A stretch of 64,000 nt of DNA from Terriglobia bacterium. GTDB taxonomy: Bacteria > Acidobacteriota > Terriglobia > Acidiferrales > UBA7541. The stretch covers positions 58,442 to 122,441 of the forward strand of contig JBGPTF010000001.1 of the NCBI GenBank assembly GCA_041490445.1, given 5' to 3'. Below, in pieces: positions 7,945 through 24,570 of the stretch. A program made the translations under genes and the position numbers. The notes under the pieces are model-generated. The model did no database searches, had not been told where the DNA came from, and saw only the letters and a list, made by a program, of their open reading frames with translations. The number at the start of each line of letters is the position of its first letter. The first letter of the stretch is position 1.

Positions 7945-8055
7945 CTACTGCACGACGAGCGTAACGGTGGTCGTATGCGTGACTGATCCTGCTTGCTCGG
8001 TGATCGTGATTGTAGACGTGCCAGCCGGGGTGCCAGCGCCGCCATCGCCATCAAG
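7945..8055 (-). pseudogene. Possible 3' stump of a truncated surface/Ig-like repeat protein gene
   Basis: The minus frame reads ..LDGDGGAGTPAGTSTITITEQAGSVTHTTTVTLVVQ* and abuts the IS630 relic. Only ~36 codons, so weak. Confidence 0.25.
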
Positions 8056-8432
8056 AGTATCTGCACTTTCTCAAAGAGATCGACGCCAACGTCCCCAAGT
8101 GACTCGCCGTCCCCCTGATCGTGGACAACTACGCCACGCACAAGCATCCGCGCGTGCAACGCTGGCTGGTCGCGCACCCCCGCGTTCAGGTGTATTTCAC
8201 CCCGACCCATGCTTCCTAGCTGAATCAAGTTGAAATCTGGTTCCACATCATCACCCAGAAGACCATTCGCCGCGGCACCTTCCGCAGCGTCAAAGAACTG
8301 GTAGCCCAGATCGAGTACTTCGTCCGAACCTACAATGCCCAAGCGAGCCCGTTTATCTGGACCGCTACGGCCGACTCAATCCTCCAGAAGATCGGACGAC
8401 TTTGTGAACATATTTCCGGGACACAACACTAG
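8050..8432 (+). mobile_element. IS630-family insertion sequence relic (C-terminal transposase fragment, pseudogene)
   Basis: The frame reads ..FLKEIDANVPK*LAVPLIVDNYATHKHPRVQRWLVAHPRVQVYFTPTHAS*LNQVEIWFHIITQKTIRRGTFRSVKELVAQIEYFVRTYNAQASPFIWTATADSILQKIGRLCEHI. This matches the DDE C-terminal consensus (DNxxxHK..FTPTxxSWLNQVE..F.WT). There are two in-frame stops (TGA 8100, TAG 8217) and no N-terminal half. Confidence 0.75.
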
Positions 8433-10552
8433 GAGCCGCTTTCTTCTCCCTGATCTTTGCCCTGCCGCGAGGAGTCCGTACCTTCGCCCTTGCCGGTCTC
8501 CAAATCATCCGAATGAGTCTCCTTCGCTGGGGCTTTACCGGAGAGCGCGTGAAGATAGGCGGACCGGGTGTGCCGGAGGTGATCGGCGGATGCCTTGCCG
8601 GTCAGCCAGGAGCGGTCGAGCGGATAAACATCGGGGTCGAAAATCGTGGAGTAGAAATGCCACAGCAAAATGGCAAGCGTGGCCAGTATGGCTTCGTAGT
8701 AATGCACGGCAGTCGCAGCGTCCGCCACCCATTTCGGAAAGTACCGCAACGTGAAATTATTGAACCAGAGCAAGAGGCCGGACAGCGACATCACCGCCAT
8801 GCCCCAGATGAATGCAAGATATTCGATCTTCTCGCCGTAACTGAATTTTCCGAACTGCGGACGTTCCCGGGTGAGCCCGAGATTGAATCGGAGCACGCCG
8901 CCAAGATCAAGCAAATCTTGCTTGCCGGGAATCATGGCGCGCATGATCGCGCGGTCCCGCCGCGAAACGATCAAATGGATGGCGTGATAGACGAGAGAAG
9001 CGATCAGCACCACGGCCGCGACGCGGTGCAGCGTGCCGCGGAAGGCGAACCGGCTTTCCCACTGCACAAGCGGCCGCGCCCACCACGACTCGGGAAATTT
9101 CAGCGCGAAGCCCGTTGCCACCAGGACCGGAAAGCTGACCACGACGAGCCAGTGCTCGATTCGGAAATGCAGATTCATCCGCGGAACTTCCTGGCCTGTT
9201 TCCACGCGTGGCTCGTGACGCAGCAGCTTCGCGATGAAATCCGCGGCATTGTGGAACACCATGAACAACACCGTCAGCGGGATCAACACCCAGTAGATGA
9301 TCCGGATCCATCTCACGACCGGATGCTCGCTGGCTGACTCCGGGCGGACGTGCACCGGCCCGATGGCGAAAGTCGAGCCTGCGCCCGGGTGGCAGGCGCC
9401 ACAGGTCTTTGCCAGGTTCGCAGAATTCACGGTAGAGCGCGGATCGTTGGAGGGAAAGATATTGTGCACGCCATGGCAGGAAGCGCAATTCGCGACTGTC
9501 TGGGAGCCGGCGCGCATGGCGAGGCCGTGGTAGCTGTCCTCGTAAGCGGGTACTTTGTCGAGCGGCAGGTTGTAACGCTTCGCCAGGCGCTCGTCGGTGT
9601 GGCAGCGGCCACAGGTCACCGTCGAGACACGCGCGGGATTCACGAGCGATTGCGGTTCACCGGGGGCGAGAATGTTGTGTTCACCGTGGCAATCGGTGCA
9701 GACCGGAGCATCGGCAACGCCTTCGCGCATCGCCTGACCGTGGATGCTTGCCAGATACGTGTCGCGGATCTGCGTGTGGCACGCGCCGCAGGTCTGCGGC
9801 ACGTTCCAGTGGTTGATCTTTGATTTTGGATCGCGGGCGGGCAAAATGCCATGAACACCATGGCAATCCGAGCACGAAGCGGCCGCGTTGTTTCCCGCTG
9901 CCACGGCGCGGCCATGCACGCTCAGCCGATAGGCTTCCACAGGCCGGGCAAAGGGGATGACGTGCTGCGAGAGATATTGAGGATTCGCATGGCACGATCC
10001 GCAGGTACTCGCCAGATTGTGCTTGGAGACGGGCGATGCTGGATCCTCCCGCGCCACGATCGCATGTGTCTTTCCGTGACAAGACTGGCAAGTCGCAATC
10101 GCGCCGGAACCGTTGGCATGTTGCCTGCCATGAACACTCGATTGGAATTCCTGCAATACATCGGAGTGGCAGGCGCTGCATTCCTGCCCGGGAGTCGTCC
10201 CGGGCGACTGATTTTCGTGGGGATCGCCGTGACAACTCGTGCACGAATCCTTGCCGAGCACCGCACCGTGAATGCTCTTTGAAACCGCGGCGGCTTCGTC
10301 CACATGGCAAGTGGCGCATTCCACCCCCGTCACGTGCTTCGGGTGCGGATACTCCTTGATGTCGGAGTGGCAATCTCTGCAGGCGAGGATCCCGTGGACA
10401 CTGGCCTTCTGCCGGGCGCCATCCACGTGCAGGCTCCGGCCAGAGTCACTCTTGAATCTTTTTTCTCCGTGGCAGGCAAGGCAATCGGCATTCTGCGGGG
10501 CCGGCGGTACCAGCGCCAGCCCGAGGGTCGCGAATAAGCCAAAAAGGGACAC
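8429..10552 (-). CDS. Multihaem c-type cytochrome (13 CXXCH) fused to a C-terminal membrane di-haem cytochrome b domain (CbcL-like quinol oxidoreductase)
   Basis: GTG start with GGAGA 7 nt upstream. I counted 13 CXXCH motifs in the N-terminal ~400 aa. The C-terminal ~250 aa carry 4-5 hydrophobic helices with conserved His (FdnI/HydC-type cytochrome b). Confidence 0.85.
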   Translation of the reverse strand: MSLFGLFATLGLALVPPAPQNADCLACHGEKRFKSDSGRSLHVDGARQKASVHGILACRDCHSDIKEYPHPKHVTGVECATCHVDEAAAVSKSIHGAVLGKDSCTSCHGDPHENQSPGTTPGQECSACHSDVLQEFQSSVHGRQHANGSGAIATCQSCHGKTHAIVAREDPASPVSKHNLASTCGSCHANPQYLSQHVIPFARPVEAYRLSVHGRAVAAGNNAAASCSDCHGVHGILPARDPKSKINHWNVPQTCGACHTQIRDTYLASIHGQAMREGVADAPVCTDCHGEHNILAPGEPQSLVNPARVSTVTCGRCHTDERLAKRYNLPLDKVPAYEDSYHGLAMRAGSQTVANCASCHGVHNIFPSNDPRSTVNSANLAKTCGACHPGAGSTFAIGPVHVRPESASEHPVVRWIRIIYWVLIPLTVLFMVFHNAADFIAKLLRHEPRVETGQEVPRMNLHFRIEHWLVVVSFPVLVATGFALKFPESWWARPLVQWESRFAFRGTLHRVAAVVLIASLVYHAIHLIVSRRDRAIMRAMIPGKQDLLDLGGVLRFNLGLTRERPQFGKFSYGEKIEYLAFIWGMAVMSLSGLLLWFNNFTLRYFPKWVADAATAVHYYEAILATLAILLWHFYSTIFDPDVYPLDRSWLTGKASADHLRHTRSAYLHALSGKAPAKETHSDDLETGKGEGTDSSRQGKDQGEESGS

Positions 10553-10579
10553 AGCAATATCTCCGACAAATGGGCGCGG

Positions 10580-12028
10580 CTACTTGATTCCCAGGTCCTT
10601 GAGAATCTTCGGGTTCGATTCCTCCATCGCGAGAATGTCGTGACAGGTCGTACAGTCGTTCGGAATTGTCTGGCCGTCGGCGCTCGTATGATTCCCATCG
10701 TGACAGCGGAAACATCCCAGGAAATCCTCGTGGCCAAGGTTGTTCGGATAGGTACCCCAGAAAATCTTCATCTCCGGGAATACGTTGCGCAGATAAATGG
10801 CCTTTACCTGATCCGCCGCTGTTTCGATCTGTGCGCGGTGCTGGGCATATACGCTGGAGTAGTTCGTGCGGTAGAACGCCGTGATCACCTCAGGAATGGC
10901 AGTGGATGCAGTCGCGCGGTCGGGGTAGTCCACGTGCAGGGCCTCGACGGCTTTCTTCTTGATGAAGGGCAAGTCCGGGCTGATCCGCCCCTGCGACATA
11001 GCCAGATCGACAGCGCGCTCGGGCATCTGGAAAGCATGGGTGGGGCGATTGTGGCAATCCATGCAGTCCATCGTGCGGTGTTCCCCCCGCGCCATCTCTT
11101 CGGTGGTAACTTTCACGTCGCTCGAATTGAAGACCACTGTCTTTCCACCGTCGCCCAGATACGTCACCTGCGGAATCACCTGGCGGTGTTCGTCCGTGGC
11201 CACATAGGTGATCGGCATGAGCGTATTGAGGTGCCGGCCGTGAATGCCGATGCCGCCCTGCCAGGTATGGCCGCCGATTTTCAGCACGAGCACGGTGGTG
11301 AGCGGCGAGTTTTTCTCGTCGTCCGAATATTTTGTGCGAACCAAGAACTTGTCACCCTCGAACCGCTGCGGCCAGTGGCATTCCTCGCAAGTCTCGCGGG
11401 CCGGCCGCAGGAACTTCACGGGTGATGGGACCGGGCGATGAAACGTGTGAAAGGTGACGGCGAAGACCTGCCGGACGCCGGAAAGCTTCGAGCGAACGAA
11501 CCAGGGCGCTCCCGAACCGATGTGACAATCCACGCAGGCCACGCGGGCATGCGGTGAATTCTGGTAGGCAGTGTATTCCGGCTCCATCACGGTGTGACAG
11601 GTCATGCCGCAGAATTGGACCGAATCCATGTACTGCACACCGCGGTAGGAAGCCATCCCCAGGATCAAGACGTTTAGAACGGTCGCGAAGGAAACGAGGA
11701 CCAAAGCGCGGCGGAGCAGCGGATCGCGGAGATCAACTTTCGGGTAGATTTCAGGCAATTCGCCGGCAAGGCGCAGTTTTCTCCGGCGCAGCAAAGCTCC
11801 GACGGGGATCACGAGCAGCCCAGCAACGAACACTCCCGGGAGGACCAAGAAGAAAACAATCCCTGCGTAGGGATGCACGGGCCCAGGTTGCAGAAGTTCA
11901 ACGGCCCAGAAAATCAGGAGGGTGGAAGCGGAGCTCGTGGTCAAAACTGCGCCGAGGAGGGAAATCGGATTCCGGCCCAGGTAAACAATGGGGCGGAACC
12001 ACGACGCCACGCGCTCATTCATTGCCAT
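10580..12028 (-). CDS. Membrane-anchored multihaem cytochrome with NapC/NirT-like region (ImcH-like)
   Basis: Three N-terminal hydrophobic helices, then FCGMTCH (CX3CH) plus 5 CXXCH motifs (CVDCH, CEECH, CMDCH, CFRCH, CTTCH). Confidence 0.75.
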   Translation of the reverse strand: MAMNERVASWFRPIVYLGRNPISLLGAVLTTSSASTLLIFWAVELLQPGPVHPYAGIVFFLVLPGVFVAGLLVIPVGALLRRRKLRLAGELPEIYPKVDLRDPLLRRALVLVSFATVLNVLILGMASYRGVQYMDSVQFCGMTCHTVMEPEYTAYQNSPHARVACVDCHIGSGAPWFVRSKLSGVRQVFAVTFHTFHRPVPSPVKFLRPARETCEECHWPQRFEGDKFLVRTKYSDDEKNSPLTTVLVLKIGGHTWQGGIGIHGRHLNTLMPITYVATDEHRQVIPQVTYLGDGGKTVVFNSSDVKVTTEEMARGEHRTMDCMDCHNRPTHAFQMPERAVDLAMSQGRISPDLPFIKKKAVEALHVDYPDRATASTAIPEVITAFYRTNYSSVYAQHRAQIETAADQVKAIYLRNVFPEMKIFWGTYPNNLGHEDFLGCFRCHDGNHTSADGQTIPNDCTTCHDILAMEESNPKILKDLGIK

Positions 12029-12262
12029 TGTTGTCCGATTCCGGCCTGTCCGAGGCCACGCGGTCTAGCGGGGCCGCGAGCGACCTCTCCCTTCCAAACA
12101 TGCAGGATTCCCAATGCAAGCGATCTCGCAGACTACTCCTTCTGCCGCCATCGAGATATACAGACCCTGCCATTCGAACGGCAAGCCCAAACAACGAGCT
12201 AAGCAGGTCACCGGACCTTCGGCGGACCTTGTGAATCGGAGGAGTCTGCGCTTCTCGCCGCC

Positions 12263-12601
12263 CTATTTTTTGGCCAGGCTGCGGACGAACGCGATCAGAT
12301 CATTCATATCCTGCGGGCTGAGATCCTTGGCCGGCTTCATCTTGCCCGTGCCTTCGGAAACGATCTTTTTCAAATCAGCGTCGCTCTTCGCCTGCACTTC
12401 TTTGGAGCCGAGCGCATGCATCTCCACTTTGAACATTTTGGCGATGGCTTCTTTTCCGGCGCCGTCCGGTCCATGACAGCTCGAGCAGCGCTTCATGAAA
12501 ACTGCTTTGCCCGCGGTCGCGTCTGCTTTGTCGGCACCGAAAAGCGGCACGGCGAGAACACCTGCTGCGATCATTGCCAAGAAAATGCGACTCTTTTTCA
12601 T
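12263..12601 (-). CDS. Class I monohaem cytochrome c (periplasmic)
   Basis: 112 aa with a signal peptide MKKSRIFLAMIAAGVLAVPLFG, a CSSCHG motif and a distal Met (GKMKPA). Confidence 0.85.
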   Translation of the reverse strand: MKKSRIFLAMIAAGVLAVPLFGADKADATAGKAVFMKRCSSCHGPDGAGKEAIAKMFKVEMHALGSKEVQAKSDADLKKIVSEGTGKMKPAKDLSPQDMNDLIAFVRSLAKK

Positions 12602-12670
12602 TCCTTCCTCCTATTGGTTCTTCGTGGAACTGAGTTCACCCAAACACTCCCCCAATTGGAATCACCGTTC

Positions 12671-14002
12671 TCAGGCGGATCCTTTCTTCGATTCGATCTC
12701 ACGGATCCAAAGCCACAGTCCGATGAGGACCACGATGATGGCAAACACTGTAATGCCCAAACCCTTCCGGCGATAATCACGCTCGGCGAGGGCCTGCATT
12801 CCGGCTTCGAGAGTCGCATGACTGACTTTCAACCCCTCCTGGACGTCCGCGGCGACTCGCGCGGGGGTGAAGCTGTGAATCGTCACGCGGGCTTTCGTCA
12901 AGGCGTCGCGCGCTTGTGATTCAGCAAGCCTTGCCTGGCTGACTTCCATGCCGGAGCGCTCGGCCTGGCCGAGCACCTCGTCCGACTTTTCCATGGCCGC
13001 CTGCAGGCGCGCGAGACCGGCATGCATGGTTTGCGCGCCCTCAAAACCGGGATCCCCGGACGAATGGCAGCGGCCGCAGAGAGAGTTCTCGTTTGTCGCC
13101 AGCAACGCATCGGTGGGATGGACGATGCGATGATTCTCATGACAAGTCACGCAGCCGGGCAATGACATTGCCGTAAAGGCATCCTTGTGGGGGCTTTGGT
13201 CAAAGAGCTGCGCCTGGAATGCGTGGCAGGTCGAGCACACAAATTCGACCGAGGCGACGCCCGGAGGAGTTGCGCCGTGATTTCCATGACAGGTGGTGCA
13301 TGTCGGCGCACTCAAATCGCCGCGAACGACGAGCGCCTCATGATGAACGCTTGCCTTGTACTTCGCATATTGATCGGTAGGAATCCCGTAGGACTTCATG
13401 TACTGGCTGTCCGCATGACAGCGGGCGCACGTCTCGGCGACGTTCAATGGATGGACGCGCGAACGGGAGTCGGAGGCGGGCCGGATGTTATGCAAGCCAT
13501 GGCAGTCCGTGCACACGGCGACACGCGCATCGCCCTGCGCCAGCCGCCTGCCGTGAACGCTCGTCCGGTACTGGCTGAGCTGGTCGGTGCGAAGCGATGG
13601 ATTGAATTGGCGCATGTATGCCACATCGGAATGGCACTTGGCGCAAACCTCGGGGACTCGATTGTGCTCGATCTTCCCGCGAAAACCGGCGGCACGCCCC
13701 ATCGCCACGTTCGGATCGTCGCTCGTCGGATCTCCGCCATGGCAGGCGGCGCACGTAAGCCCTTTCTGAGAGTGAATGTCCTGGCTGAAATCCTCCTGAG
13801 TCACCCGCAACGGCGGGTCGAGCAGAGAATGGCATTCGATGCAGGTGTTCCTGGTCTGCGCATAGCTGACCGCGGGAAACAGGCAAGAGAGCGCGAGCAG
13901 GAGAAGCAGGGGAGGAAGCCAGGCACGAGAATCTCGGAGAGCGGCGATGTCCTCGATCGTCACCGAGCAGCGTGCATGCGCGTGTTGAAAGTCACTTTGC
14001 AA
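12671..14002 (-). CDS. Nonahaem c-type cytochrome with C-terminal membrane anchor
   Basis: 9 CXXCH motifs counted. C-terminal hydrophobic helix [21 protein letters not shown] start overlaps the cytochrome b stop by 11 nt, so the exact start is uncertain. Confidence 0.8.
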
Positions 14003-15077
14003 TGTAGCCCACCACCGTCATCGAAAGGACATAGAACAACATAAAGATGCCGATGCCCGTCACCCATCGGCTAATCCGATGGCTCGGGCCTTTGTCGAAG
14101 AAGGGCAACAATAGCCAAAGCAATCCGGCGACGCCAAATCCGAGCACACCCAATAGCTCACCGTCGAAAAACCAGATCTTTGCGGGAATCCATTTGAGCG
14201 TCTGGAACATGAAGAGGAAGTACCATTCGGGTTTGATCCCCGCGGGCGCCGGGGCAAAGGGATCAGCCTTTGTCCCGAGGCCCCACGGCAACAGAGCGGC
14301 CAGCGCGCCAAGCACACCCAGGGCGATGTACCACGCCATCATTTCGCGCAGCAGGAAATTCGGGAAAAAGTGCAGTTCGCGCCTCTTCTGCGGCTGAGCT
14401 TCCCACTCCGCCTCAATTCTTGGTGGCACGCTGATGCCAAAGCGCTGGACAAGAAGAAGATGAAGCAGGAGGAAGAGAGTCGCCAGGCCGGGAAGTACGG
14501 CGACATGAAATCCGAAGAACCGCGTAAGGGTGGCGCCGGTAACCTGGTCGCCTCCGCGCAGAAACACGAGCAGCCAGTGGCCAATCGCAGGTATCTGACC
14601 CGCGATGTCCGTTCCCACGGTCGTGGCGAAGAATGCCAGTGTGTTCCACGGGAGCAGATAACCGCTGAAGCCGAATCCGAGCGCGAGCAAGAGCAACACC
14701 ATGCCGCTCACCCAGGTCAACTCCCGCGGCTTGCGGTAGGACTTCAGGAACAGCACGCTGAACATGTGCGCGAAGGCCATGCCAATCATCAGATTCGCGC
14801 CCCAGGAATGAATCGAGCGCACCAACCAGCCGAATTTCACCTGCGTCATGATGTAGCTGACGCTCTCAAAGGCGCCGCTGGAAGTTGGCCGGTAATACAA
14901 GAGGAGAAGAATTCCGGTCAGCACCTGGAGGACAAAAAGGAACAACGTCATCCCGCCAAGAAAATACCAATACGAGAAGCGATGAACGGGGACAGTCTTC
15001 TTCTTCAAAACCGCCGTGAGTTCCGCCCAGCCGAACCTTTCGTCGAGCCAGTCGTGGATCCCCCGAAAAACTCCCAT
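13992..15077 (-). CDS. Cytochrome b (fused b6 + subunit IV type) of a Rieske/cytb complex
   Basis: Start at ATG 15075-15077 ([17 protein letters not shown]). Also [31 protein letters not shown] and [10 protein letters not shown]. About 8 TM segments. Confidence 0.9.
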
Positions 15078-15078
15078 C

Positions 15079-15567
15079 TCATGCCCCCCGGCTCTGGCTG
15101 ACGATGATTTCATCGCCGCGGACGTGGACGTCGTACTGCTGGAGCGGCCGGGGCGGCGGCCCGCTGATGTTGCGGCCATTCAGATCGTAGAGGCCGTTGT
15201 GGCACGCGCACCAGACTTCCCGCAGGTCGGTGCGGTACTGTACGGTGCAATTCAAATGCGTGCAGGTGGCAGAAAGCGCGCGATATTCTCCCTCGGCAGT
15301 CAGGACCAGCAGCGCGGGACGACTGCCGAAAGCAAATATTTTCCCACTATTCGGTTTCAACTCTCCGATCTTGCCTGCCACCACCGTGTCACTCCCGAGG
15401 TCGGCAGAGGGGGGAGGAAGCAGGTAGCGGAGCAGGGGATAGAGGAAAGAAGCTGCGGAGGCGATGAGGCCACCGCCAAGAATGAATCCGATCAGACGGC
15501 GCCGTGTCGGCCCCGCGCCTGCCTCCCGTGGAGCGGGACCGTCAGACTTCTCGGTTTGCATCGCCAC
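15079..15567 (-). CDS. Rieske 2Fe-2S subunit (Tat-exported)
   Basis: CTHLNC..x17..CACHNG Rieske motifs. Twin-arginine TRRRLIGF. The stop lies 1 nt from the cytochrome b start. Confidence 0.9.
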
Positions 15568-15781
15568 CTCGCAAGGCCTTCTTCTTCGAACCTTCCGTCA
15601 CACCAACTTTCGCTGCTCGGAGAATGCGAATAATCAAGAATCTACTTTCTCTATCCGTTCGGATTCTGCGCCCAAAAACTTCCGCGCCAAAACAAAAATG
15701 CAAGTCCGTCAGGGAAACGCATACCCCACCACCGGGATGGGGGGCTCTTTCATCCTTTCGCGACCTGCGCGGTGCAGGCTT

Positions 15782-16237
15782 TCAGCGAGGCACCCCTTCC
15801 GACGCCTCGATCCAGCGTGGCTCGATGCGAACGGCAGCCCGGAGAGATTTGCTGATGAGGCAGCCCTTCTCCGCTTTTTCCATCAGCCGTTTCCCGCGCT
15901 CGATGTCTTCCGGCGCCACACCGACCTCCGGTGAAAGAACGATCTCCGTGAACTGGAGGCCTTCTCCGGCAACTTTTTCGAGACGGCCCTTGGCTTCCAG
16001 GCGAAAGGAATGCACGGGAAGTTTCGAGATTTCGGCGATGGCCAAGAACGTAGCCATCAAGCAGCTCGCCGAGGCGGCTACCAGGAGATGCTCCGGGCTC
16101 CACATTCCGCCCGGCCCGGAGAATTCGGGAGGCGGAGCAACACGAAGAGGCGGCAGGTCATCCGCCGTCAGCCGGCCTGTCCGCGCCCCAGTCCAGTTCG
16201 CTTCCAGTGAATAAAAGTATGTGTCGGCCATGGTCAC
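15782..16237 (-). CDS. OsmC/Ohr family peroxiredoxin-like protein
   Basis: 151 aa. SPEHLLVAASASCLMATF and the C-terminal KGCLISKSL match the two-Cys OsmC pattern. Confidence 0.7.
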   Translation of the reverse strand: MTMADTYFYSLEANWTGARTGRLTADDLPPLRVAPPPEFSGPGGMWSPEHLLVAASASCLMATFLAIAEISKLPVHSFRLEAKGRLEKVAGEGLQFTEIVLSPEVGVAPEDIERGKRLMEKAEKGCLISKSLRAAVRIEPRWIEASEGVPR

Positions 16238-16446
16238 GCAGCCTTTCGAGCTTGCCGGCGATTCCGCGTCTTTATGCTTCGGGCCGGGCTCTTCGCAGGG
16301 AAGTCAGGAATGCGCACGGGCCTGCTGCGCGTGCTTGCAATGCGATTCCAGCAGTGGTGGCACTGGTGGCCGGAATCGCAGGCCACCAGAATCAGATCCA
16401 CCGGCCCAAACGGCTGCCCGCAGAATGGACAGATCGTATCCATCAA
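16234..16446 (-). CDS. Small 4-Cys zinc-ribbon protein (hypothetical)
   Basis: 70 aa with CPFC..x18..CHHC. The stop overlaps the OsmC start (ATGA coupling). No family recognised. Confidence 0.35.
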   Translation of the reverse strand: MMDTICPFCGQPFGPVDLILVACDSGHQCHHCWNRIASTRSRPVRIPDFPAKSPARSIKTRNRRQARKAA

Positions 16447-16494
16447 ATCCTCCTCACAAGCGGCGAACGAACAGGGCTGAAGCCCGCCCGGAGA

Positions 16495-16899
16495 TCAGGC
16501 GATGGCAGGAAGGACCATTTCCCGCGGCGAGGCTTCAACTGCTTTAGCCGCAATTCGAGCGAGCTCGTTCCGATCGACCGGAAATGCCAAGCAGTCAAAG
16601 GCGCCGCAGCGCATCGCTTCGAGATAGAGATCCACATCCTCGGCGTCGGCAATCACCACCACCGGCGGCAACGCATGCGACCGGCCGTCCCAAGAAAAAA
16701 TATCCAGGAAGTCAGTGTTGCTCCGATTGAGGCGAAGCAAGAGGACATCGAACCGTCCTGATTGCAGCACCTCCCGGAGTTCATCAAGAGTCTGCACGTG
16801 GCGCAGACGGCAACCGAAACGATCCATCGCCTCTCGGACGCTCAGCAGATTTCCCGCCGGATCAACGCACACCACGAACTTCCCTTCAAGCGGCTTCAT
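16495..16899 (-). CDS. Atypical single-domain receiver protein (phospho-acceptor Asp replaced)
   Basis: Receiver-like beta-alpha pattern (KFVVCVDP.., PPVVVIADAEDVDLYLEAMRCGAFDCLAFP). The position normally DxxxxD-L reads FDVLLLRLNRS, with R in place of the acceptor D. Confidence 0.55.
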   Translation of the reverse strand: MKPLEGKFVVCVDPAGNLLSVREAMDRFGCRLRHVQTLDELREVLQSGRFDVLLLRLNRSNTDFLDIFSWDGRSHALPPVVVIADAEDVDLYLEAMRCGAFDCLAFPVDRNELARIAAKAVEASPREMVLPAIA

Positions 16900-17284
16900 G
16901 CCCCACCTCCAACCCCCGCTCGCCAATCAAGCAATAAATGGAACCGACGACCTCGGCAACATGCAGTGGTTTCTGCAACACCAGGTCAAATCCAGCCTGC
17001 CACGCGCGATCGGCTAATTCGGCCGTCGCTTCCGCAGAAACGAGGACTGCCAGGATGTGCGGATGTTTGTCTCGCATGTCTCGGAGCACGTCGAACCCAT
17101 CCTGTTCACCGGTGAGCTGCCAATCCGTGACCAACACATCGAACGGGAAACACGCTCCGAGCCATCCCGCTTCCTTGGCATCTGCCGCACAAACAACCGA
17201 GAAGCCCGTTTCTTGCAGGGCAGTCCGCATCCACCAGCGGAATACCCGGTTGTCTTCCACCACAAGGACTCTTGGTCGTTCCAT
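16886..17284 (-). CDS. Single-domain response regulator (CheY-like)
   Basis: Start at ATG 17282-17284 (MERPRVLVVEDN). Acceptor context FDVLVTDWQL. Conserved K region LVLQKP. Confidence 0.75.
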   Translation of the reverse strand: MERPRVLVVEDNRVFRWWMRTALQETGFSVVCAADAKEAGWLGACFPFDVLVTDWQLTGEQDGFDVLRDMRDKHPHILAVLVSAEATAELADRAWQAGFDLVLQKPLHVAEVVGSIYCLIGERGLEVGHEAA

Positions 17285-17735
17285 CGCGCACGCTCCTGGA
17301 CTGGCGCTTCGTCTCGACAGTCCGAGCTCCCCTCGTTCTTTCTGCAACCATGCGACCGAAAGGGTTCGGAGAGAGACGATGTCTACAAAGCGAATCGGCT
17401 CTTTGATTTGTGTGCCTCTCCTGCAGTTTCGCGGGCGCGAAGCTGAGGCCAAATGTGGGAAATCCATCGGTTTGCAGACATTACCTGTGTTAAATGGCAC
17501 AAAGAAAAGGGGTGCCGAAATGAGTCCGCAGTTCCCAGTTTCTTCAACGTCTTATTCTGCAAGCTGTTAGCTCATCGCACGTTTTGTGGCCTTTCTTGTG
17601 CAGAGATGCCACGCTGGTATTGGCCCCATCACAGTCGTGCGACGGGGTGCGACGACTGCGCGGAGGGAGTCGTGAACGTTTTCGAGATTCACTTGCCACT
17701 CTTGAGGCACCAAACGACTCCACTCAGACACCATA

Positions 17736-17763
17736 TTGACTTGCTAATGAACAGAGTTAGAAT
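17736..17763 (+). promoter_or_regulatory. Sigma-70-type promoter candidate for the decahaem/porin operon
   Basis: TTGACT-16 nt-TAGAAT, located 88 nt upstream of ATG 17851. Confidence 0.45.
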
Positions 17764-17850
17764 GAGTGTATCTTGGGGAGTTGCACCCCCTTCGCACCTC
17801 CCGATAGTCAAGAGTCTCAACCCCATCGCCGATCGCTCGAGGAGCTTCCA

Positions 17851-18798
17851 ATGAGCTACGCGCCGCAATTGAGGCAGCTCTGCAGGTTCATCGTTATCTT
17901 CGCGCTTCTCCCACTGGGTGCTGGCCGGTTAATGGCGGCCGATCAGGAAAAACCGTCCAAGCCTGCCGTCGCAGCGGATCAGGACCAGTCCAAGTATGTG
18001 GGGGCGGAAACCTGCAAGACCTGCCACGAGGACATCTACAATTCATTTGAGAAGACACCGCACTGGAAAACGACCTACGACTCGCGGCGCGGCGCGGCAT
18101 TCCAAGGCTGCGAAGCGTGCCACGGGCCGGGCGCCGACCACGTCAACGGCGGCGGCGACAAGACCAAGATCTTCACGTTCAAGAATGTTGATCCGGAAAA
18201 AATCAGCGAACGCTGCCTGACGTGCCACGTGTACGGCGAGGAGCACAGCAATTTCGACCGCTCCGCGCACAACACGAACAATGTCACCTGCATTGACTGC
18301 CATTCTCCGCATCACGCCAAGGAATCGCAGTATCTGCTGAAGGTGAAGCAGCCGGATCTTTGTTACGGATGCCATCTCGATGTGCGGTCGGCATTCAACA
18401 AGCCCTTCCACCATCGTGTGAACGAGGGCCTGGTGAGGTGCACCGACTGCCACAACCAGCACGGCGGATTCCTGACCAAACAGTTGCGCTCGACCGCCGC
18501 GCAGGACGCGGTTTGCTTCAAGTGCCACGTGGACAAGGCCGGTCCATTTGTATTCGAACATGCCGCAGTAGTGGCAGAAGGCTGCGTGGCCTGCCACACG
18601 CCGCACGGCTCTTCGAACCCGCGGCTGCTCAAGCGGAGCCAGGTCAACCTGCTTTGCCTGGAATGCCACACATTGACGCTGGATTCCGGAGTTCCCGGCG
18701 TGCCTTCGTTCCACAACCAGGCGCAGAAGTATCAGGCGTGCACCATGTGCCACACGCAGATTCACGGATCCAACTTCGACCGGTTCTTCTTCAAATGA
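17851..18798 (+). CDS. DmsE/MtrA/PioA-family periplasmic decahaem c-type cytochrome
   Basis: 10 CXXCH motifs counted. The family-typical C-terminus CTMCHTQIHGSNFDRFFFK is present, as is a signal peptide. Confidence 0.85.
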   Translation: MSYAPQLRQLCRFIVIFALLPLGAGRLMAADQEKPSKPAVAADQDQSKYVGAETCKTCHEDIYNSFEKTPHWKTTYDSRRGAAFQGCEACHGPGADHVNGGGDKTKIFTFKNVDPEKISERCLTCHVYGEEHSNFDRSAHNTNNVTCIDCHSPHHAKESQYLLKVKQPDLCYGCHLDVRSAFNKPFHHRVNEGLVRCTDCHNQHGGFLTKQLRSTAAQDAVCFKCHVDKAGPFVFEHAAVVAEGCVACHTPHGSSNPRLLKRSQVNLLCLECHTLTLDSGVPGVPSFHNQAQKYQACTMCHTQIHGSNFDRFFFK

Positions 18799-18898
18799 GG
18801 CGAGAGCCATGACACGTTATCGCCAGTATCCAATAGATTCTCCGGCAGGGAGCGAGCCGACCGCGCCCGGTCGTTTCCGCCGGATCGAGGAGCGGCCC

Positions 18899-21361
18899 AT
18901 GAAATTGCATCGCTGGTCCTGGATGACTGCAATCTTGGCCCTGGTTTTCGGACTTCTGTTGCCCGGCGGTTTGATGGCGCAGGATACGAAGGATTCACAA
19001 AAGCCCGCCGAACCGACGGACGGAATCAATTCAGGCGACTACAATTTCCGGCAGTCGGTTGAGTTCGGCTATCGGATGACCGACTTCACCGGCAATCGCT
19101 CGGTATACGACACGTTTGTGAATCTAAACGACGGCCCGCGCCTGCTCGATTACACGCTCGAGATGCGCTCGCTGAATCACAGTGGGTCGTTGTTCGATAA
19201 TTTCTATTTGTCGAATTTTGGTTATGGCGGCGACCCGAACAACGTGACCCGGCTGCGCGCGTACAAGAACAAGTGGTATTCGCTGACGGGACAGTTCCGT
19301 CGCGATCTGAATTTCTGGGACTATAACCTGCTGGCCAATCCTCTGAACCCAACGAACACATTCATCCAGGCGTTCAATTCGCCCCACGCGTTTCACACGG
19401 TGCGACGCATGAGCGATCTCAACCTCATCCTCATGCCACAATCGCGGGTGCGGCTGCGCCTCGGCTACGTTCGCAGCGTCGCCGAAGGCCCGTCGTTTTC
19501 TTCGCTCCATGACGGCACGGACTTTCTGCTCGCCCAGAACTGGAAGACCACGACGAATGCTTACTCGTTCGGTGTGGATTACAAGGGGCTGGAGCGGACC
19601 AACATCAGCTACGATCAGACCTTCAATTACTACAAAGGGGACACCACGTGGACCGACCCGGTCCTCACCGGAATGCCCAACTTCCTGACGCGCTTCCAGC
19701 TTTCGGACGGCAGCGCGGTGGATGCAGGGCTCCCCTATAATGTGGCAGGCTCGCAACCCTGCGGCAACACGCCCCCCATTTTTTCACCTGGGACGCCGCC
19801 CGTGTTGAAATCCGCCTGTAACGCAGTGACGAACGGGACGGCGCGGTTTGCCAGCGGTGGGTCCAGCTTCACCATTCCCGGCTACGACCGTGCGGGCCGT
19901 GTCCGTTCAAGCTTCCCGACCGAGCAGATCAGCTTCCAGTCAAATTACTTCAGGAATCTCGATTTGTCGGGCCGCGCGATCTACAGCGATTCCGACAGCC
20001 AGAGCCTGGATTTCCAGGAACTTTTCTTCGGGCTGATTACGAGGACCAACGAGCGCGCGTTCCTATCCTCGGGCCCGGCCACATCGCACGTCGTGAACGC
20101 AACCGTGGATTTCGCCGCGACGTACCGGTTCACCGAGAAGCTCCGCCTTGTGGATTCCTTCCGCTTCCGCAACTACAGGATTCCCGGAGCATGGCTCTTC
20201 AACAACGCCAGCGTATTCACGACAGCCTCCCCTGTCACTCTGTTGAGTCCGGTGGTGTCTTCTCCTCAGGCCTGTTTGACGACCGCGTGCAACCACTCGA
20301 GTTCCTCCCCGGCGGATCTCTCTTCCGGCCTGTGGAGCGAATTGTTCAAGCAAGATATCAAGATGAATACGGCGGAACTGGAATATGACCTCACACGCCG
20401 ATACGGCGTACGCATCGGCTATCGCTTCCGCCATCGCACGATCATTCACAGCCTCGCCAAATCCACGACCGAGACTTTCTATCCGGGCACCGCCAACCGC
20501 GGTGACTGCGCCCTGGTCAGCGGGAGTCTGCCGGACGGCTGCACCGCGCTAGGTGGCGGCGCATTCCAATTCGTCACACCAACTCCGCTGGTGCCCGATT
20601 CCGACACCACCGAGATCAACGAGCATTCCGGCTTGTTCGGGTTCTGGGCGCGCCCGACGGACAGATTTCGCGGCAGCTTCGATCTCGAACGCATGTCTGC
20701 CGATAACACGTTTACGCGCATCAGCCCGAGCGATCTCGAGCTCTACAAGGTACGCGTAAGATACCAGCCGCTGGAATGGCTGCACGTGGGAACGGCAATC
20801 AATCTGGTTGAGAATCGCAACGATGCATTCCAGGTGGATAATCACCAGCACGATCGGACCTACGCCTTCAACGTCGAAATGCAGAAAGGCGAACGTTTTG
20901 GATTGGACTTGGAATACGAATTCAGCAACGTCTTCTCCAGCTCGAACATCTGCTACGCATTCTCACCGCTTCCGGTGGGGACGACAGTGCCGCCCTGTCC
21001 AGTGAGCGCGAGCGGATTCGCCCCTCTTGCAGGCACGTCGCTGTATGACACCCGGACCCACTTCGGCTACTTCGACGCCATGTGGAAGCCGTTCAAGCGC
21101 ATCACGACTCATCTGGGGTACACTGTCACCACGACCAACGGCCAGACGACGTTCTTGAATCCAAACGCGCCGCCGGGTCCGCTCGCGTTCAATTATCACC
21201 GGCCGTATGCCGACCTCGACATCGAACTGGCAAAGGGACTGAGCTACAAGACTCACTGGGGCTACTACGGCTACAACGAGAGGGAGCCGTCTGACCCCAT
21301 CACGGGTTCGCGGAAATTCCGCGGCAACCTGGCAACGTTTTCCGTGCGTTACGCGTTCTAG
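18899..21361 (+). CDS. MtrB/PioB-type decahaem-associated outer-membrane beta-barrel
   Basis: 820 aa with signal peptide MKLHRWSWMTAILALVFGLLLPGGLMAQ. Alternating amphipathic strands rich in Y/F/N/T/R, and a terminal ..FSVRYAF (OMP C-terminal Phe). Lies immediately downstream of the decahaem gene. Confidence 0.7.
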   Translation: MKLHRWSWMTAILALVFGLLLPGGLMAQDTKDSQKPAEPTDGINSGDYNFRQSVEFGYRMTDFTGNRSVYDTFVNLNDGPRLLDYTLEMRSLNHSGSLFDNFYLSNFGYGGDPNNVTRLRAYKNKWYSLTGQFRRDLNFWDYNLLANPLNPTNTFIQAFNSPHAFHTVRRMSDLNLILMPQSRVRLRLGYVRSVAEGPSFSSLHDGTDFLLAQNWKTTTNAYSFGVDYKGLERTNISYDQTFNYYKGDTTWTDPVLTGMPNFLTRFQLSDGSAVDAGLPYNVAGSQPCGNTPPIFSPGTPPVLKSACNAVTNGTARFASGGSSFTIPGYDRAGRVRSSFPTEQISFQSNYFRNLDLSGRAIYSDSDSQSLDFQELFFGLITRTNERAFLSSGPATSHVVNATVDFAATYRFTEKLRLVDSFRFRNYRIPGAWLFNNASVFTTASPVTLLSPVVSSPQACLTTACNHSSSSPADLSSGLWSELFKQDIKMNTAELEYDLTRRYGVRIGYRFRHRTIIHSLAKSTTETFYPGTANRGDCALVSGSLPDGCTALGGGAFQFVTPTPLVPDSDTTEINEHSGLFGFWARPTDRFRGSFDLERMSADNTFTRISPSDLELYKVRVRYQPLEWLHVGTAINLVENRNDAFQVDNHQHDRTYAFNVEMQKGERFGLDLEYEFSNVFSSSNICYAFSPLPVGTTVPPCPVSASGFAPLAGTSLYDTRTHFGYFDAMWKPFKRITTHLGYTVTTTNGQTTFLNPNAPPGPLAFNYHRPYADLDIELAKGLSYKTHWGYYGYNEREPSDPITGSRKFRGNLATFSVRYAF

Positions 21362-21375
21362 TGCATGCCTCCACC

Positions 21376-21420
21376 GTGGTGGCGGAGAGCGATGAACCAG
21401 CCGCCACCACACCCTTTTCT
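21376..21420 (+). terminator. Intrinsic terminator after the porin gene
   Basis: Perfect 10-bp stem GTGGTGGCGG/CCGCCACCAC with a 15-nt loop, followed by ACCCTTTTCT. Confidence 0.6.
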
Positions 21421-21718
21421 GTGAGTCATCTCCCGCAGGGCTGGGGAATCCCCCGCGACTGCCAATTCTTGCGGGCTCGCAGCATCTCCAAGACTCGACT
21501 AACTCCCGCTCTTTCTGCTCGGTTTCCGGCTACAGAATTTGGGGGAGTGGAACATGGGGTGCTACCAAGAATCGTGAAGTTGTTTGTCCAGAGCTGACCG
21601 AAGTGAGGTAGTAACAATGAACAAAACGAAAGATCTGGAACTAGAACCGAGAGCGGGAATCCAGATGGCCGAAGATGCCTCTCATCTCCTCGGGCCGCGG
21701 GGAGATCTGAAGCCCGGA

Positions 21719-22771
21719 ATGATGATGGCTTTCGTGATGAAGCGAATCGGAGAAGTCGGCCTGATGGTGAAGCCGATTCCGGAACCGGGGCCTAACGACG
21801 CGGTCATCAAGACTACTGCCGCTTTGATTTGCACCTCGGACGCGCATACTGTCGGTGGCGCAATCGGCGAACGGCAGAACATCACGCTGGGCCACGAAGC
21901 CGTCGGTGTCATCTACAAACTGGGCAGCGACGTGCGTGGATTTCACGTTGGCCAGCGCGTGGCCGTCAATGCCATCACACCCTGCTTCCACTGCGAGAAC
22001 TGCCTGCGGGGTTTTCCGTCGCAGTGCACCCAAATGCTGGGCGGCTGGAAATTCGCGAATACCAAAGATGGAAATCTGGCCGAGTATTTTCACGTCAACG
22101 ATGCGATGGCAAATCTCGCGCCGATTCCGGATGTTCTGCGCGACGATCAAGCCGTCTATTGCTGCGACATGATGTCCACCGGCTTCATGGCTGCGGAGCA
22201 CGCCAACATTCCGATTGGGGGCAGCGTGGCCATTTTCGCACAAGGGCCCGTCGGTCTGATGGCGACGGCGGGAGCGCGATTGCTGGGAGCAGGGCTGATC
22301 ATTGCGGTTGAATCCGTGCCGAAGCGCAAGGAGCTCGCTCGCCGGTTCGGCGCCGACGTGGTGATCGACTTTAATGAGCAAGATCCAATCCAAGCGATTC
22401 TGGATTGGACCGGGGGCCAGGGTGTGGACGCGGCGATCGAGGCCCTCGGCGCTCCGTCGAGCTTCGAAGCTTGTATCAAAGTCACACGCCCGGGCGGGAC
22501 CATCTCGAACGTCGGTTATCACGGCCAGGGCGATTACGTTCCCTTGCCGCGCCTGGAGTGGGGAGTCGGCATGGGCGACAAGGTCATCCGAACCGGCCTG
22601 TGTCCCGGTGGCGCGGAGCGGATGAAACGGTTGATGCGGCTGCTCGTCTCCGGACGAGTGGATCCGACGCCGCTGACAACGCACCGCTTCCCGTTTGATC
22701 AGGTGGAAAAAGCCTTCCGCATGATGCAGACTAAGGAGGACGGAATCCTAAAATCGCTGATCTTGTTCTAG
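21719..22771 (+). CDS. Zn-dependent NADP(H) secondary-alcohol dehydrogenase (TbADH/CbADH-like MDR)
   Basis: From MMMAFVMKRIG, collinear with my recollection of Thermoanaerobacter brockii ADH: CTSDAHTV, ILGHEAVG, GWKFANTKDG..EYFHVNDA..NLA, GPVGLM, LPRLEWG.GM and GLCPGG. Confidence 0.85.
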   Translation: MMMAFVMKRIGEVGLMVKPIPEPGPNDAVIKTTAALICTSDAHTVGGAIGERQNITLGHEAVGVIYKLGSDVRGFHVGQRVAVNAITPCFHCENCLRGFPSQCTQMLGGWKFANTKDGNLAEYFHVNDAMANLAPIPDVLRDDQAVYCCDMMSTGFMAAEHANIPIGGSVAIFAQGPVGLMATAGARLLGAGLIIAVESVPKRKELARRFGADVVIDFNEQDPIQAILDWTGGQGVDAAIEALGAPSSFEACIKVTRPGGTISNVGYHGQGDYVPLPRLEWGVGMGDKVIRTGLCPGGAERMKRLMRLLVSGRVDPTPLTTHRFPFDQVEKAFRMMQTKEDGILKSLILF

Positions 22772-22835: not shown

Positions 22836-23240
22836 TCAAGCCGGCTTCAATAGCCGTTGAACTTTTTCCACTAACAAGTCGGCATCATAAACTGGCTTCT
22901 CGAGATACTCATCGGCTCCCGATGCTGCGAGAAGGCGCTCGCGGTCCCCGGCCATCGCATGGGCCGTTGCCATCAGGATGGGGAGGCGACGCGGAGCGTG
23001 TTTCTTCAGGAGTTGAGCGAGCTCGACGCCGTCAATCGGCTGGCCCTCCCATTCGGTGTCGTGCAACGAAACATCCAGAACCGCGCACACGATGCGGCCC
23101 GCCTCGACTTCCGGCAGCATCTTCCGAACATCTTCGGTCACCAGGCAGGAGAAGCCTCCCGCACGTTCGAGCGCCATACGGAAGAATTTGGCGACTAGTT
23201 TGTTATCTTCGACGATCAGGATGCGTTCCGAGTTGGTCAT
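22836..23240 (-). CDS. Single-domain response regulator
   Basis: MTNSERILIVEDNKL.., acceptor CAVLDVSL, LEKP. The start overlaps the kinase stop (ATGA). Confidence 0.8.
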   Translation of the reverse strand: MTNSERILIVEDNKLVAKFFRMALERAGGFSCLVTEDVRKMLPEVEAGRIVCAVLDVSLHDTEWEGQPIDGVELAQLLKKHAPRRLPILMATAHAMAGDRERLLAASGADEYLEKPVYDADLLVEKVQRLLKPA

Positions 23241-24502
23241 TCCTCGATACCGGCCTTCGCCTCCTGTCTGGATTGACCTCCCGCTGAATTCGAGAGGCCG
23301 GCTGACAGAGGAAGAGTAAACCAAGCCCGCGTGCCTTCGCCCCCGGCACCGCTCTCAAGGCCGATTTCTCCGCCCATCATTTCCACAAGCCTTCGGGCGA
23401 TCGCCAGACCCAGACCGGTTCCTTCCGAGCTGCGAGATTTTCCACCGCTACCCTGTACAAACTTCTGGAAAACCAGTTCCCTCTCGGCGAGCTGGATGCC
23501 GATCCCGGTATCTTCCACCTCGATCCTCAAGAAGCCTTGCGGTTTACTGGCGTGAGCTCGCACGATGATAGAACCCCGGGTAGTAAACTTCACTGCATTC
23601 GAGAGTAGATTCAGCAGCACCTGGCGGAAGCGAACCTCGTCAGCGCGGACGTGAGGCAGATTCATCTCCAAAGTTTCGTCGCGCAGTTGCACGCCCTTCT
23701 CCGCGGCTTGTACGGCAACGAGCGGCAAAGTTGAATCCAGCACATGGCGCGGATTGATGTCTTCGAGATGGAGGGTAATCTTTCCCGCTTCCAGTCGCGC
23801 AATATCGAGCAGATCGTTCACGAGGCTGAGGAGGTGTTGTCCACTGGAATAGACGTCTCGAAGAAGTTCTCTATCCTCCTCCGCATTCCGGGAGTGGCCG
23901 TCCAGAATCAGCTTTGTGAATCCGAGAATGGAGTTGAGCGGTGTCCGCAGTTCGTGGGAGACCTGCGCAAGAAATTCATCCTTCACTCGGCCCGCTTCCA
24001 GCAGACCAATGGTCGCTTGCTCGAGTTGCTGGTTGACCACGCGCAGGTTGTCCATCGTCGCGTGGAAGTACGATTCACAAATCAAGTTCAAATCAAGATC
24101 GAGGATTCTGCCGAGAGAGCGAGCGTACCTCAAGCGTTCGTGACTTGACGGGAATTCAGTGAGGAGAGAATCGATCAAGAACGCGCGCACGATTCCCATC
24201 GCGCTGATCACATATTTCTGTTCGAGCCCGAGGCGGACATGCCGGAAGCCGATCTGGAAACGCTCCTCGGCGTAGGCCCCGTCGTAAACGCCGGCGAACA
24301 ATCCCCTGCCCCAGGCCTGCAATGTGCGCTTCAAACGGGCAATCTGCGCTTCTCCGCCGGTGAATACCCGGAAAGCATTCGGATGATGAGGGATTTGCGC
24401 GTAGAATCGCTCCGACATCTCCGGGAGGTAGCGCTCCATATGCGGGCCGAGGTTCCGCAGGAGTTCACAATCCTCCGCGCCCAGCCCGAGGTATCGCTTC
24501 AT
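23237..24502 (-). CDS. Globin-coupled (protoglobin-domain) sensor histidine kinase
   Basis: The N-terminal ~150 aa resemble a globin-coupled sensor domain (LLRNLGPHMERYLPEMSERFYAQIPHHPNAFRVF..ERFQIGFRHVRLGL). Followed by HisKA (FLAQVSHELRTPLNSILG) and HATPase (N, G1 DTGIGI, G2 GTGLGLAI) boxes. Confidence 0.7.
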   Translation of the reverse strand: MKRYLGLGAEDCELLRNLGPHMERYLPEMSERFYAQIPHHPNAFRVFTGGEAQIARLKRTLQAWGRGLFAGVYDGAYAEERFQIGFRHVRLGLEQKYVISAMGIVRAFLIDSLLTEFPSSHERLRYARSLGRILDLDLNLICESYFHATMDNLRVVNQQLEQATIGLLEAGRVKDEFLAQVSHELRTPLNSILGFTKLILDGHSRNAEEDRELLRDVYSSGQHLLSLVNDLLDIARLEAGKITLHLEDINPRHVLDSTLPLVAVQAAEKGVQLRDETLEMNLPHVRADEVRFRQVLLNLLSNAVKFTTRGSIIVRAHASKPQGFLRIEVEDTGIGIQLAERELVFQKFVQGSGGKSRSSEGTGLGLAIARRLVEMMGGEIGLESGAGGEGTRAWFTLPLSAGLSNSAGGQSRQEAKAGIEE

Positions 24503-24570
24503 CTCCTGGATGAAATTTTCCAAGCCGGAGGCTCCTTGTCCCGCCGCGAGGTGAATTCTAGAATGATAGC

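Follow-up and report, generated by a model that had tools for sequence, protein, structure and literature searches.

The stretch of DNA analysed here, referred to in the following as the window, is a 64,000-nucleotide segment of a Terriglobia genome (GenBank assembly GCA_041490445.1, contig JBGPTF010000001.1, positions 58,442 to 122,441). At window positions 8429–21361 it carries a cluster of genes for multihaem cytochromes, a Rieske/cytochrome b pair and a large outer-membrane β-barrel. The source genome comprises 3.53 Mb in 27 contigs and is 97.6% complete, and the named relatives of the window proteins come from metagenome-assembled genomes (MAGs) of Terriglobia/Acidobacteriota. The minus strand encodes, in order of increasing coordinates, proteins of 707, 482, 112 and 443 amino acids (aa), cytochrome b and the Rieske protein, and then an OsmC-like protein and two receivers. 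The plus strand encodes the decahaem cytochrome, followed by the large barrel open reading frame (ORF). The predicted products of the cluster proper are:

8429..10552, minus strand: CbcL/MtoC/MtrH-type fusion protein of 707 aa, with 13 CxxCH motifs and a C-terminal FdnI/HydC-like dihaem cytochrome b domain
10580..12028, minus strand: ImcH-type inner-membrane cytochrome of 482 aa, with three transmembrane helices, a CX3CH motif and then five CxxCH
12263..12601, minus strand: periplasmic monohaem class I cytochrome c of 112 aa, with a signal peptide, matches to PF00034 and PF13442, and one CSSCH
12671..14002, minus strand: nonahaem cytochrome c of 443 aa, with nine CxxCH, a signal peptide and a C-terminal transmembrane anchor
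13992..15077 (ORF to 15179), minus strand: cytochrome b, with b6 and subunit IV fused (PF00033, 181.9 bits, and PF00032); 361 aa from the likely start
15079..15567, minus strand: Rieske [2Fe-2S] subunit (PF00355, E = 2.3e-11; CTHLNC...CACH)
17851..18798 (ORF begins at 17773), plus strand: DmsE/MtrA-family decahaem cytochrome of 315 aa from the likely start, with a signal peptide
18809..21361 (Met31 at 18899), plus strand: large outer-membrane β-barrel; the ORF has 850 aa, or 820 aa from the likely start at Met31

In the ORF listing with its translations, all of these genes are intact, and a motif count on the translations gave 39 haem-binding motifs, 38 of them CxxCH and one CX3CH. An initial annotation of this DNA, made from the sequence alone, had named the same proteins and counted about 39 motifs; the count is reproduced, and the family matches described below agree with the identities given.

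The decahaem protein has ten CxxCH motifs and a hydrophobic leader at residues 10–31. It scored 275.3 bits against TIGR03508 (DmsE family), above the cut-off of 192.2, and matched MtrA of Shewanella (PDB 6r2q_A) with an E-value of 5.6e-37 over residues 76–335. It also matched the GSU2203 family at 230 bits, below that family's cut-off. On the strength of the TIGR03508 and MtrA matches, the protein, which is the product of the sole TIGR03508-type gene in the genome, is assigned to the DmsE/MtrA family, as a homologue of MtrA in the solved Mtr complex.

The barrel protein has a signal peptide and ends in RYAF, with a terminal Phe. No sequence match to it was found in Pfam, NCBIfam or the PDB, including by phmmer against the PDB. 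A profile made from 41 sequences of the barrel family found nothing among PDB sequences, and a Pfam scan of the 41 members returned no PF11854 (MtrB_PioB), with generic OMP_b-brl matches in 12 only; PF11854 likewise found nothing in the whole genome at E ≤ 1. The AlphaFold2 (AF2) model of the protein has a mean predicted local distance difference test score (pLDDT) of 75.5 and a predicted template modelling score (pTM) of 0.66, with about 26–29 DSSP strand elements, the exact number of strands in the barrel not being counted on coordinates. The top Foldseek match of this model in the PDB was Shewanella MtrB (6r2q_B), with an E-value of 3.7e-14 and template modelling (TM) scores of 0.53/0.67, while all other matches were 22-strand TonB-dependent transporters with TM scores of approximately 0.3–0.4. 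The structural alignment with 6r2q_B has 11% identity, and the barrel is about 170 residues longer than MtrB.

The barrel-family profile also detected shorter barrels (640–790 aa) across the Acidobacteriota, in 61 of 401 sampled genomes, the sample on which all phylum-level frequencies given below are based. In each of the 14 distant loci inspected, a ten-haem gene lies directly before the barrel gene, and in four of them this gene is in turn preceded by an OmcA/MtrC-family decahaem (430–538 bits, TIGR03507), giving the order mtrC-mtrA-barrel. When the barrel family was aligned with this acidobacterial mtrC-mtrA-barrel set using hhalign, the two matched end to end over 612 columns, with a probability of 100% and an E-value of 5.7e-49. 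A profile of the shorter acidobacterial MtrB-position barrels did not reach MtrB by sequence in the PDB, and PF11854 fails on most of these proteins too. Based on the fold match to MtrB and the profile–profile alignment to the mtrC-mtrA-barrel loci, we conclude that the barrel is a diverged MtrB homologue, lengthened by insertions. The label of MtrB/PioB-like barrel that it had been given could have failed at structure prediction and was instead borne out there by the predicted fold and the top Foldseek match; membership of the Pfam/TIGRFAM MtrB_PioB families by sequence was not found.

Four insertions are specific to the family and together carry six invariant cysteines (C318, C337, C489, C567, C715 and C730), which have no invariant counterpart in the shorter set. 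The C-terminal parts of two acidobacterial MtrB-position barrels (L089:1676-3616 and L085:3905-5941) matched NF041027, the NCBIfam 'GSU2204 family CXXCH-containing (seleno)protein', with E-values of 5.7e-11 and 2.5e-4, respectively; judging by these matches and that of the window's decahaem to the neighbouring GSU2203 family, GSU2203/2204 of Geobacter may form a related pair of decahaem and barrel.

In all, 528 species-representative genomes were confirmed to encode a relative of the barrel. Gene neighbourhoods, taken as everything within 10 kb, were counted at the best 80 of these, essentially all of them Terriglobia/Acidobacteriota MAGs. The decahaem gene lies directly upstream of the barrel gene in 78 of the 80 loci, in different species. 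A monohaem cytochrome gene is found in 34 loci (directly downstream of the barrel in 24), a nonahaem cytochrome in 26, an ImcH-like gene in 21, Rieske in 20, cytochrome b in 19 and a CbcL-like gene in 17. In six loci (L001, L012, L015, L040, L064 and L068), the pair is followed by the complete set of modules in a single same-strand array, and the divergent layout seen in the window is common to L011 and L018. Two metagenome contigs, L095 and L096, with barrels 83% and 94% identical to the one in the window, have the same gene order, including a protoglobin kinase gene downstream. The clustering exceeds chance, given how many independent genomes have these gene families next to the decahaem/barrel pair.

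At the level of whole genomes, ImcH-like homologues were found in 189 and CbcL-like homologues in 202 of the 401 sampled Acidobacteriota. The ImcH-like gene is enriched together with the barrel, being present in 46 of the 61 barrel-positive genomes and in 143 of the 340 others (odds ratio 4.2, p = 1.5e-6), and at least 23 of the sampled genomes have the two genes within about 12 kb of each other. For the CbcL-like gene, the corresponding numbers are 35 of 61 and 167 of 340, and the association with the barrel is not significant (p = 0.27). The recurrence of the modules across the 80 loci and the 401-genome sample shows that the supercluster is no singular assembly but a modular feature that recurs within the lineage. 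Co-localisation of all these parts had been considered unusual in the initial annotation, a view that did not survive: the modules recur beside the conduit across Terriglobia, the layout is identical in near relatives, and there are published precedents in the Geobacter extHIJKLMNOPQS cluster, the mtoAB-mtoD-mtoC/cymA clusters and the Rhodoferax mtr clusters.

Neither NCBIfam nor Pfam has a model for ImcH, and likeness to ImcH and CbcL was judged from published site tables. ImcH has been defined by three N-terminal transmembrane helices, an atypical CX3CH beside the third helix and then five to nine CX2CH (PMC6295460). The 482-aa protein has this architecture, with helices at residues 22–43, 50–81 and 104–128 and haem sites at 140 (CGMTCH), 165, 214, 322, 439 and 459; of the whole protein, sequence models detected the NapC/NirT segment alone (PF03264, residues 109–197). 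The tabulated sites are 134, 158, 207, 316, 433 and 453 for Geothrix and 132, 156, 205, 311, 428, 448 and 486 for Geobacter bremensis, and the spacing of 24–25/49/108/117/20 agrees with the Geobacter, Geothrix and Koribacter homologues. By its architecture and haem-site spacing, we thus class the 482-aa protein as a predicted ImcH-type cytochrome.

The b domain of the 707-aa protein matched PF01292 (Ni_hydr_CYTB) at residues 459–638 with an E-value of 4.7e-15 and TIGR01583 with an E-value of 9e-17, below the equivalog cut-off. Four strong hydrophobic segments and a weaker, His-bearing one were seen, and the C-terminus is hydrophilic, giving about five transmembrane helices and not the six of the CbcL/MtoC/MtrH type. 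In the published survey, these proteins have 3–23 c-type sites, and five- and four-helix exceptions are listed (PMC6295460). The predicted architecture is accordingly that of the CbcL/MtoC/MtrH type, and the ImcH-like and CbcL-like labels first attached to the two proteins both fit the published tables. The two genes lie side by side in many Acidobacteriota, with or without a conduit (e.g., G359:C2:266639-270258, G158:C12:164265-168643 and G229:C41:8500-12017). Four CbcL-like homologues (G232:C118:67313-69178, G302:C96:5520-7166, G194:C9:6279-7877 and G114:C91:1103-2818) contain a single in-frame TGA that was read through; these may be selenocysteine sites or pseudogenes.

The third inner-membrane module consists of the Rieske protein, which has a twin-arginine leader (TRRRLIGF in the translation), and cytochrome b, which is called at 361 aa in L095 and L096. 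The nearest NCBIfam relative of this cytochrome b after b6 is ExtP, at 210 bits, under the cut-off of 290, and a match to ExtM was found in the cluster with an E-value of 3e-4. A canonical cytochrome c1 or f subunit was not found as the third gene, which encodes a nonahaem c3/c7-type cytochrome with hydrophobic segments at residues 27–50 and 411–438, the latter serving as a C-terminal anchor. This anchored nonahaem gene comes after the Rieske and cytochrome b genes both here and in 16 of the 19 related loci that have cytochrome b. Its conserved position suggests that the nonahaem cytochrome takes the place of cytochrome c1 or f, and it is presumed to be the c subunit of the complex.

The genome has three cytochrome b loci, including that of the cluster. 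The other two, outside the window (G000:C2:67359-72354 and G000:C11:96127-99506), each adjoin a gene for a very large cytochrome (1082 and 734 aa, respectively) with eight widely spaced CxxCH and class-I-like domains, and are probably general respiratory bc complexes. That the complex in the cluster is the only complex III of the cell is ruled out by these numbers; with two other loci present, it is an extra, specialised one. The genome also encodes one haem-copper oxidase; neither RuBisCO nor OmcA/MtrC was found in it. Against the PDB at E ≤ 0.01, the monohaem cytochrome matched only CcoP, c6, c552 and c4 domains, and not MtoD. It was therefore not accepted as an MtoD homologue, and resembles MtoD by position only. 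Outside the window, two tandem ORFs (G000:C12:6435-10960, minus strand) encode proteins of 719 aa with 28 CxxCH and 670 aa with 23 CxxCH, both made up of highly repetitive c7/c3-like units behind signal-like N-termini; these could act as wire partners of the conduit, in the periplasm or outside the cell.

Further features lie between and beside the cytochrome genes:

8020..8432, plus strand: IS630-family transposase remnant (C-terminal DDE part), with in-frame stops, abutting the cluster
15782..16237, minus strand: OsmC-like peroxiredoxin (PF02566, E = 2.7e-17)
16495-16926 and 16886-17284, minus strand: two overlapping single-domain receiver genes with response-regulator matches, divergent from the conduit genes
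17736..17763, plus strand: best sigma-70-like promoter match in the region (TTGACT-16-TAGAAT, 10/12 matches), upstream of the decahaem gene

The OsmC-like gene is near the pair in 6 of the 80 loci and is conserved in close relatives only. Similarly, the receiver genes are present in the near relatives L095 and L096, yet in only one of the 80 wider loci. The downstream receiver (16495-16926) is weak on response-regulator models, with a best E-value of about 1e-5 compared with about 1e-12 for the upstream one, consistent with an atypical or degenerate protein. A promoter and terminator scan of the region gave no more sites than shuffled sequence, and the site at 17736..17763 is the one well-placed promoter-like site. 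Downstream of the barrel (22836-24598, minus strand), a histidine kinase gene with a protoglobin domain, translationally coupled to a receiver gene, stays beside the barrel gene in near relatives, and its product is a candidate O2/redox regulator of the cluster. Between the two, a Zn-dependent alcohol dehydrogenase gene (21584-22771, plus strand) is present in L095 and not in L096, a difference due to a recent indel.

The IS630 relic reported at one end is indeed a remnant with in-frame stops; its frame +1 translation reads LIVDNYATHKHPRVQRWLVAHPRVQVYFTPTHAS, followed by a stop and LNQVEIWF, and its end coincides with the stop codon of the 707-aa gene. The further suggestion of horizontal acquisition proved weak. 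At 0.591, the GC content of the cluster lies below the genome average of 0.610 and ranks at the 12th percentile among 13-kb windows of the genome; in tetranucleotide distance the cluster ranks at the 92nd percentile, and GC is flat along the window. This composition is mildly atypical and may simply reflect that of cytochromes, and an insertion sequence relic alone proves nothing; the composition was not accepted as positive evidence of recent transfer. The distribution of the barrel is patchy within the class, with one genome of the same family lacking it, and gain and loss of the cluster over long times is therefore likely. The IS630 remnant is no part of the function of the cluster, and nothing ties it to the cluster's arrival.

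Building on the observed gene content, family assignments, predicted fold and conserved linkage, we infer complexes, electron partners, a direction and a substrate as follows. The best explanation, which we consider probable, is a lineage-typical Terriglobia cluster for extracellular electron transfer, with outward flow to Fe(III), Mn(IV) or humic substances, in a setting that would be anoxic or micro-oxic acid soil or peat. The decahaem MtrA homologue would be threaded through the diverged, enlarged MtrB-type barrel, making an MtrAB-type wire across the outer membrane that, like MtoAB and PioAB, lacks an MtrC/OmcA partner. Three alternative quinol:cytochrome c oxidoreductase modules would link the menaquinone pool to the periplasm, namely the ImcH-type cytochrome, the CbcL/MtoC-type 13-haem/dihaem-b fusion, and the Rieske/cytochrome b complex with the membrane-anchored nonahaem cytochrome as its c subunit. 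From there, electrons would reach the decahaem protein by way of the monohaem class I cytochrome, perhaps with the 23- and 28-haem cytochromes taking part as well. A route from the quinone pool to the cell surface, as envisaged in the initial annotation, is supported as an idea.

Outward flow is favoured because the ImcH-type gene is enriched with the conduit, and all reports of ImcH homologues to date are from Fe(III) reducers (PMC6295460); the ImcH protein of Geobacter is needed for higher-potential acceptors. It is also favoured by the lack of RuBisCO in the genome and by the literature: candidate mtrA/mtrB genes and MtrA-like decahaems were reported earlier in Acidobacteria, and the acidobacterial homologues are read as Fe(III)-reduction genes. 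Strains of Terriglobus, Granulicella, Edaphobacter and Koribacter are among the cultured Terriglobia listed with mtrA/mtrB candidates (PMC5900883). Canonical MtrCAB has been reported in some Acidobacteriia.

Several observations weigh against this reading. The barrel fails both MtrB_PioB models (PF11854 and TIGR03509), and the CbcL-like gene is not enriched with it. The ImcH-like/CbcL-like pair occurs in about 50% of Acidobacteriota, compared with 15% for the conduit, so both proteins must serve other acceptors too. With a haem-copper oxidase present, the organism may be mainly aerobic. Moreover, Fe(II)-oxidiser chains, too, typically lack MtrC/OmcA and have a class I monohaem cytochrome and a dedicated Rieske/cytochrome b complex, so these features would fit either direction.

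Inward or reversible use of the conduit is unlikely in our judgement, and is the alternative for which most can be said. Fe(II) or reduced humics would be oxidised at the conduit and the electrons split between a downhill branch, from monohaem cytochrome c to the haem-copper oxidase found in the genome, and an uphill branch through the Rieske/cytochrome b complex or the CbcL/MtoC-type protein to the quinone pool, resembling rus/petI of Acidithiobacillus. Mto and Pio systems likewise lack MtrC/OmcA, and the 24 loci in which the monohaem gene directly follows the barrel reproduce the order mtoA-mtoB-mtoD, although the monohaem protein itself has no PDB match to MtoD at the threshold used. CbcL/MtoC/MtrH homologues are known in Fe(II) oxidisers (PMC6295460), whereas the module most enriched with the barrel is the ImcH-like one, of the type reported from Fe(III) reducers only. 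A separate Rieske/cytochrome b complex, kept in the cluster despite two others in the genome, and a protoglobin-type (haem/O2) sensor kinase that stays adjacent in relatives would suit such a chain; the lack of RuBisCO means that classical lithoautotrophy based on the Calvin–Benson–Bassham cycle is absent, and the literature assigns the acidobacterial homologues to Fe(III) reduction. A more elaborate version, which we regard as distinctly unlikely, is that the insertions of this Terriglobia-specific barrel subfamily, with their six cysteines, form a disulfide-braced surface domain that replaces MtrC at the contact with the substrate and that, together with the dedicated Rieske/cytochrome b/nonahaem complex and a high-potential monohaem cytochrome, the conduit works as a reversible, bifurcated chain. 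If this were true, abundant heterotrophic soil Acidobacteria could both reduce Fe(III)/humics and oxidise Fe(II) in acid soils, a capability with which they are not credited today.

There is little to recommend a non-metal acceptor, extracellular or periplasmic, in place of mineral respiration, be it through a DmsEF-type extracellular reductase or through the reduction of selenite/tellurite or organic radicals as proposed for Geobacter ext. Members of the DmsE family do also serve extracellular dimethyl sulfoxide (DMSO) reduction, but neither the window nor the near relatives L095 and L096 have a gene for a molybdoenzyme or another terminal reductase next to the pair. The selenite/tellurite operon of Geobacter combines an outer-membrane porin with a Rieske/cytochrome b complex, and the cytochrome b in the window resembles ExtP of that operon, although its score is below the cut-off and the ExtM match reaches no better than the E-value given above.

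Equally improbable is a mere neighbourhood, in which the inner-membrane modules are general respiratory parts near a conduit and there is no dedicated supercluster: roughly half of Acidobacteriota genomes do have the ImcH-like and CbcL-like genes, and most of these genomes lack the barrel, the CbcL-like gene is not enriched with it, and any given module is outside 10 kb in most of the 80 loci (46–63 per module), but the six gene families recur by the pair in varied orders and orientations and as single same-strand arrays in six loci, the ImcH-like gene is enriched with the barrel, and two other cytochrome b complexes are available for general respiration.

The organism belongs to the Terriglobia, which count among the most abundant bacteria of soil and peat and whose anaerobic physiology is poorly known. 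The barrel family is annotated as hypothetical and is missed by the MtrB/PioB models, and surveys that require a barrel match (TIGR03509, and probably FeGenie-type rules) will therefore under-count these conduits, relatives of which are present in 528 species genomes and in about 15% of the sampled Acidobacteriota. For a phylum outside the Proteobacteria, the cluster would also provide a concrete candidate pathway leading all the way from quinol to the cell surface. These are the two points of practical value: a barrel family that has been overlooked and, for abundant soil bacteria, a complete candidate pathway.

Among known systems, the MtrAB core of Shewanella (PDB 6R2Q) likewise pairs a decahaem from that curated family with a very large barrel, whose gene directly follows. 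Unlike Shewanella, with its MtrCAB, the genome here has no MtrC/OmcA; its barrel is missed by PF11854/TIGR03509 and, unlike MtrB, carries the family-specific insertions with six invariant cysteines. In having a decahaem/barrel pair without MtrC, the cluster resembles MtoAB of Gallionella, Sideroxydans and Dechloromonas and PioAB of Rhodopseudomonas. As in the mtoAB-mtoD-mtoC/cymA clusters, a monohaem cytochrome c and a CbcL/MtoC-type inner-membrane cytochrome are encoded in one neighbourhood, and the mtoA-mtoB-mtoD order has its parallel in the 24 of 80 relatives mentioned above. It differs from Mto/Pio in belonging to another phylum, in a barrel that the family models do not detect, in the absence of a detected RuBisCO, in a monohaem protein without detectable match to the solved MtoD, and in the addition of an ImcH-type cytochrome and a Rieske/cytochrome b/nonahaem complex.

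The inner-membrane cytochromes find their closest parallels in Geobacter sulfurreducens. The ImcH-type protein shares with ImcH (GSU3259) the three helices, a CX3CH first site, a NapC/NirT-like segment and the haem spacing, but has six haem sites instead of seven, the last one missing as in the Geothrix homologue. The 707-aa protein, like CbcL (GSU0274), combines a multihaem c domain and an FdnI/HydC-like b domain in one chain, with 13 haems instead of 9 and about five helices instead of six. The two genes are far apart in Geobacter, whereas they are adjacent here and in many Acidobacteriota. The Geobacter extHIJKLMNOPQS (Cbc6) cluster likewise places a porin-cytochrome system beside Rieske, cytochrome b and multihaem c-type cytochromes, but with the ExtI porin and ExtKL in place of an MtrAB-type pair and with a split, short cytochrome b of 23 kDa, and the scores here are below the equivalog cut-offs. 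A survey published in 2018 found no mtrAB adjoining any imcH (PMC6295460), which is contradicted by the linkage of an ImcH-type gene with an MtrAB-type conduit seen here and in at least 23 sampled genomes. Taken together, these comparisons show that the cluster is a lineage-specific variant of the known porin-cytochrome and quinol-oxidase systems.

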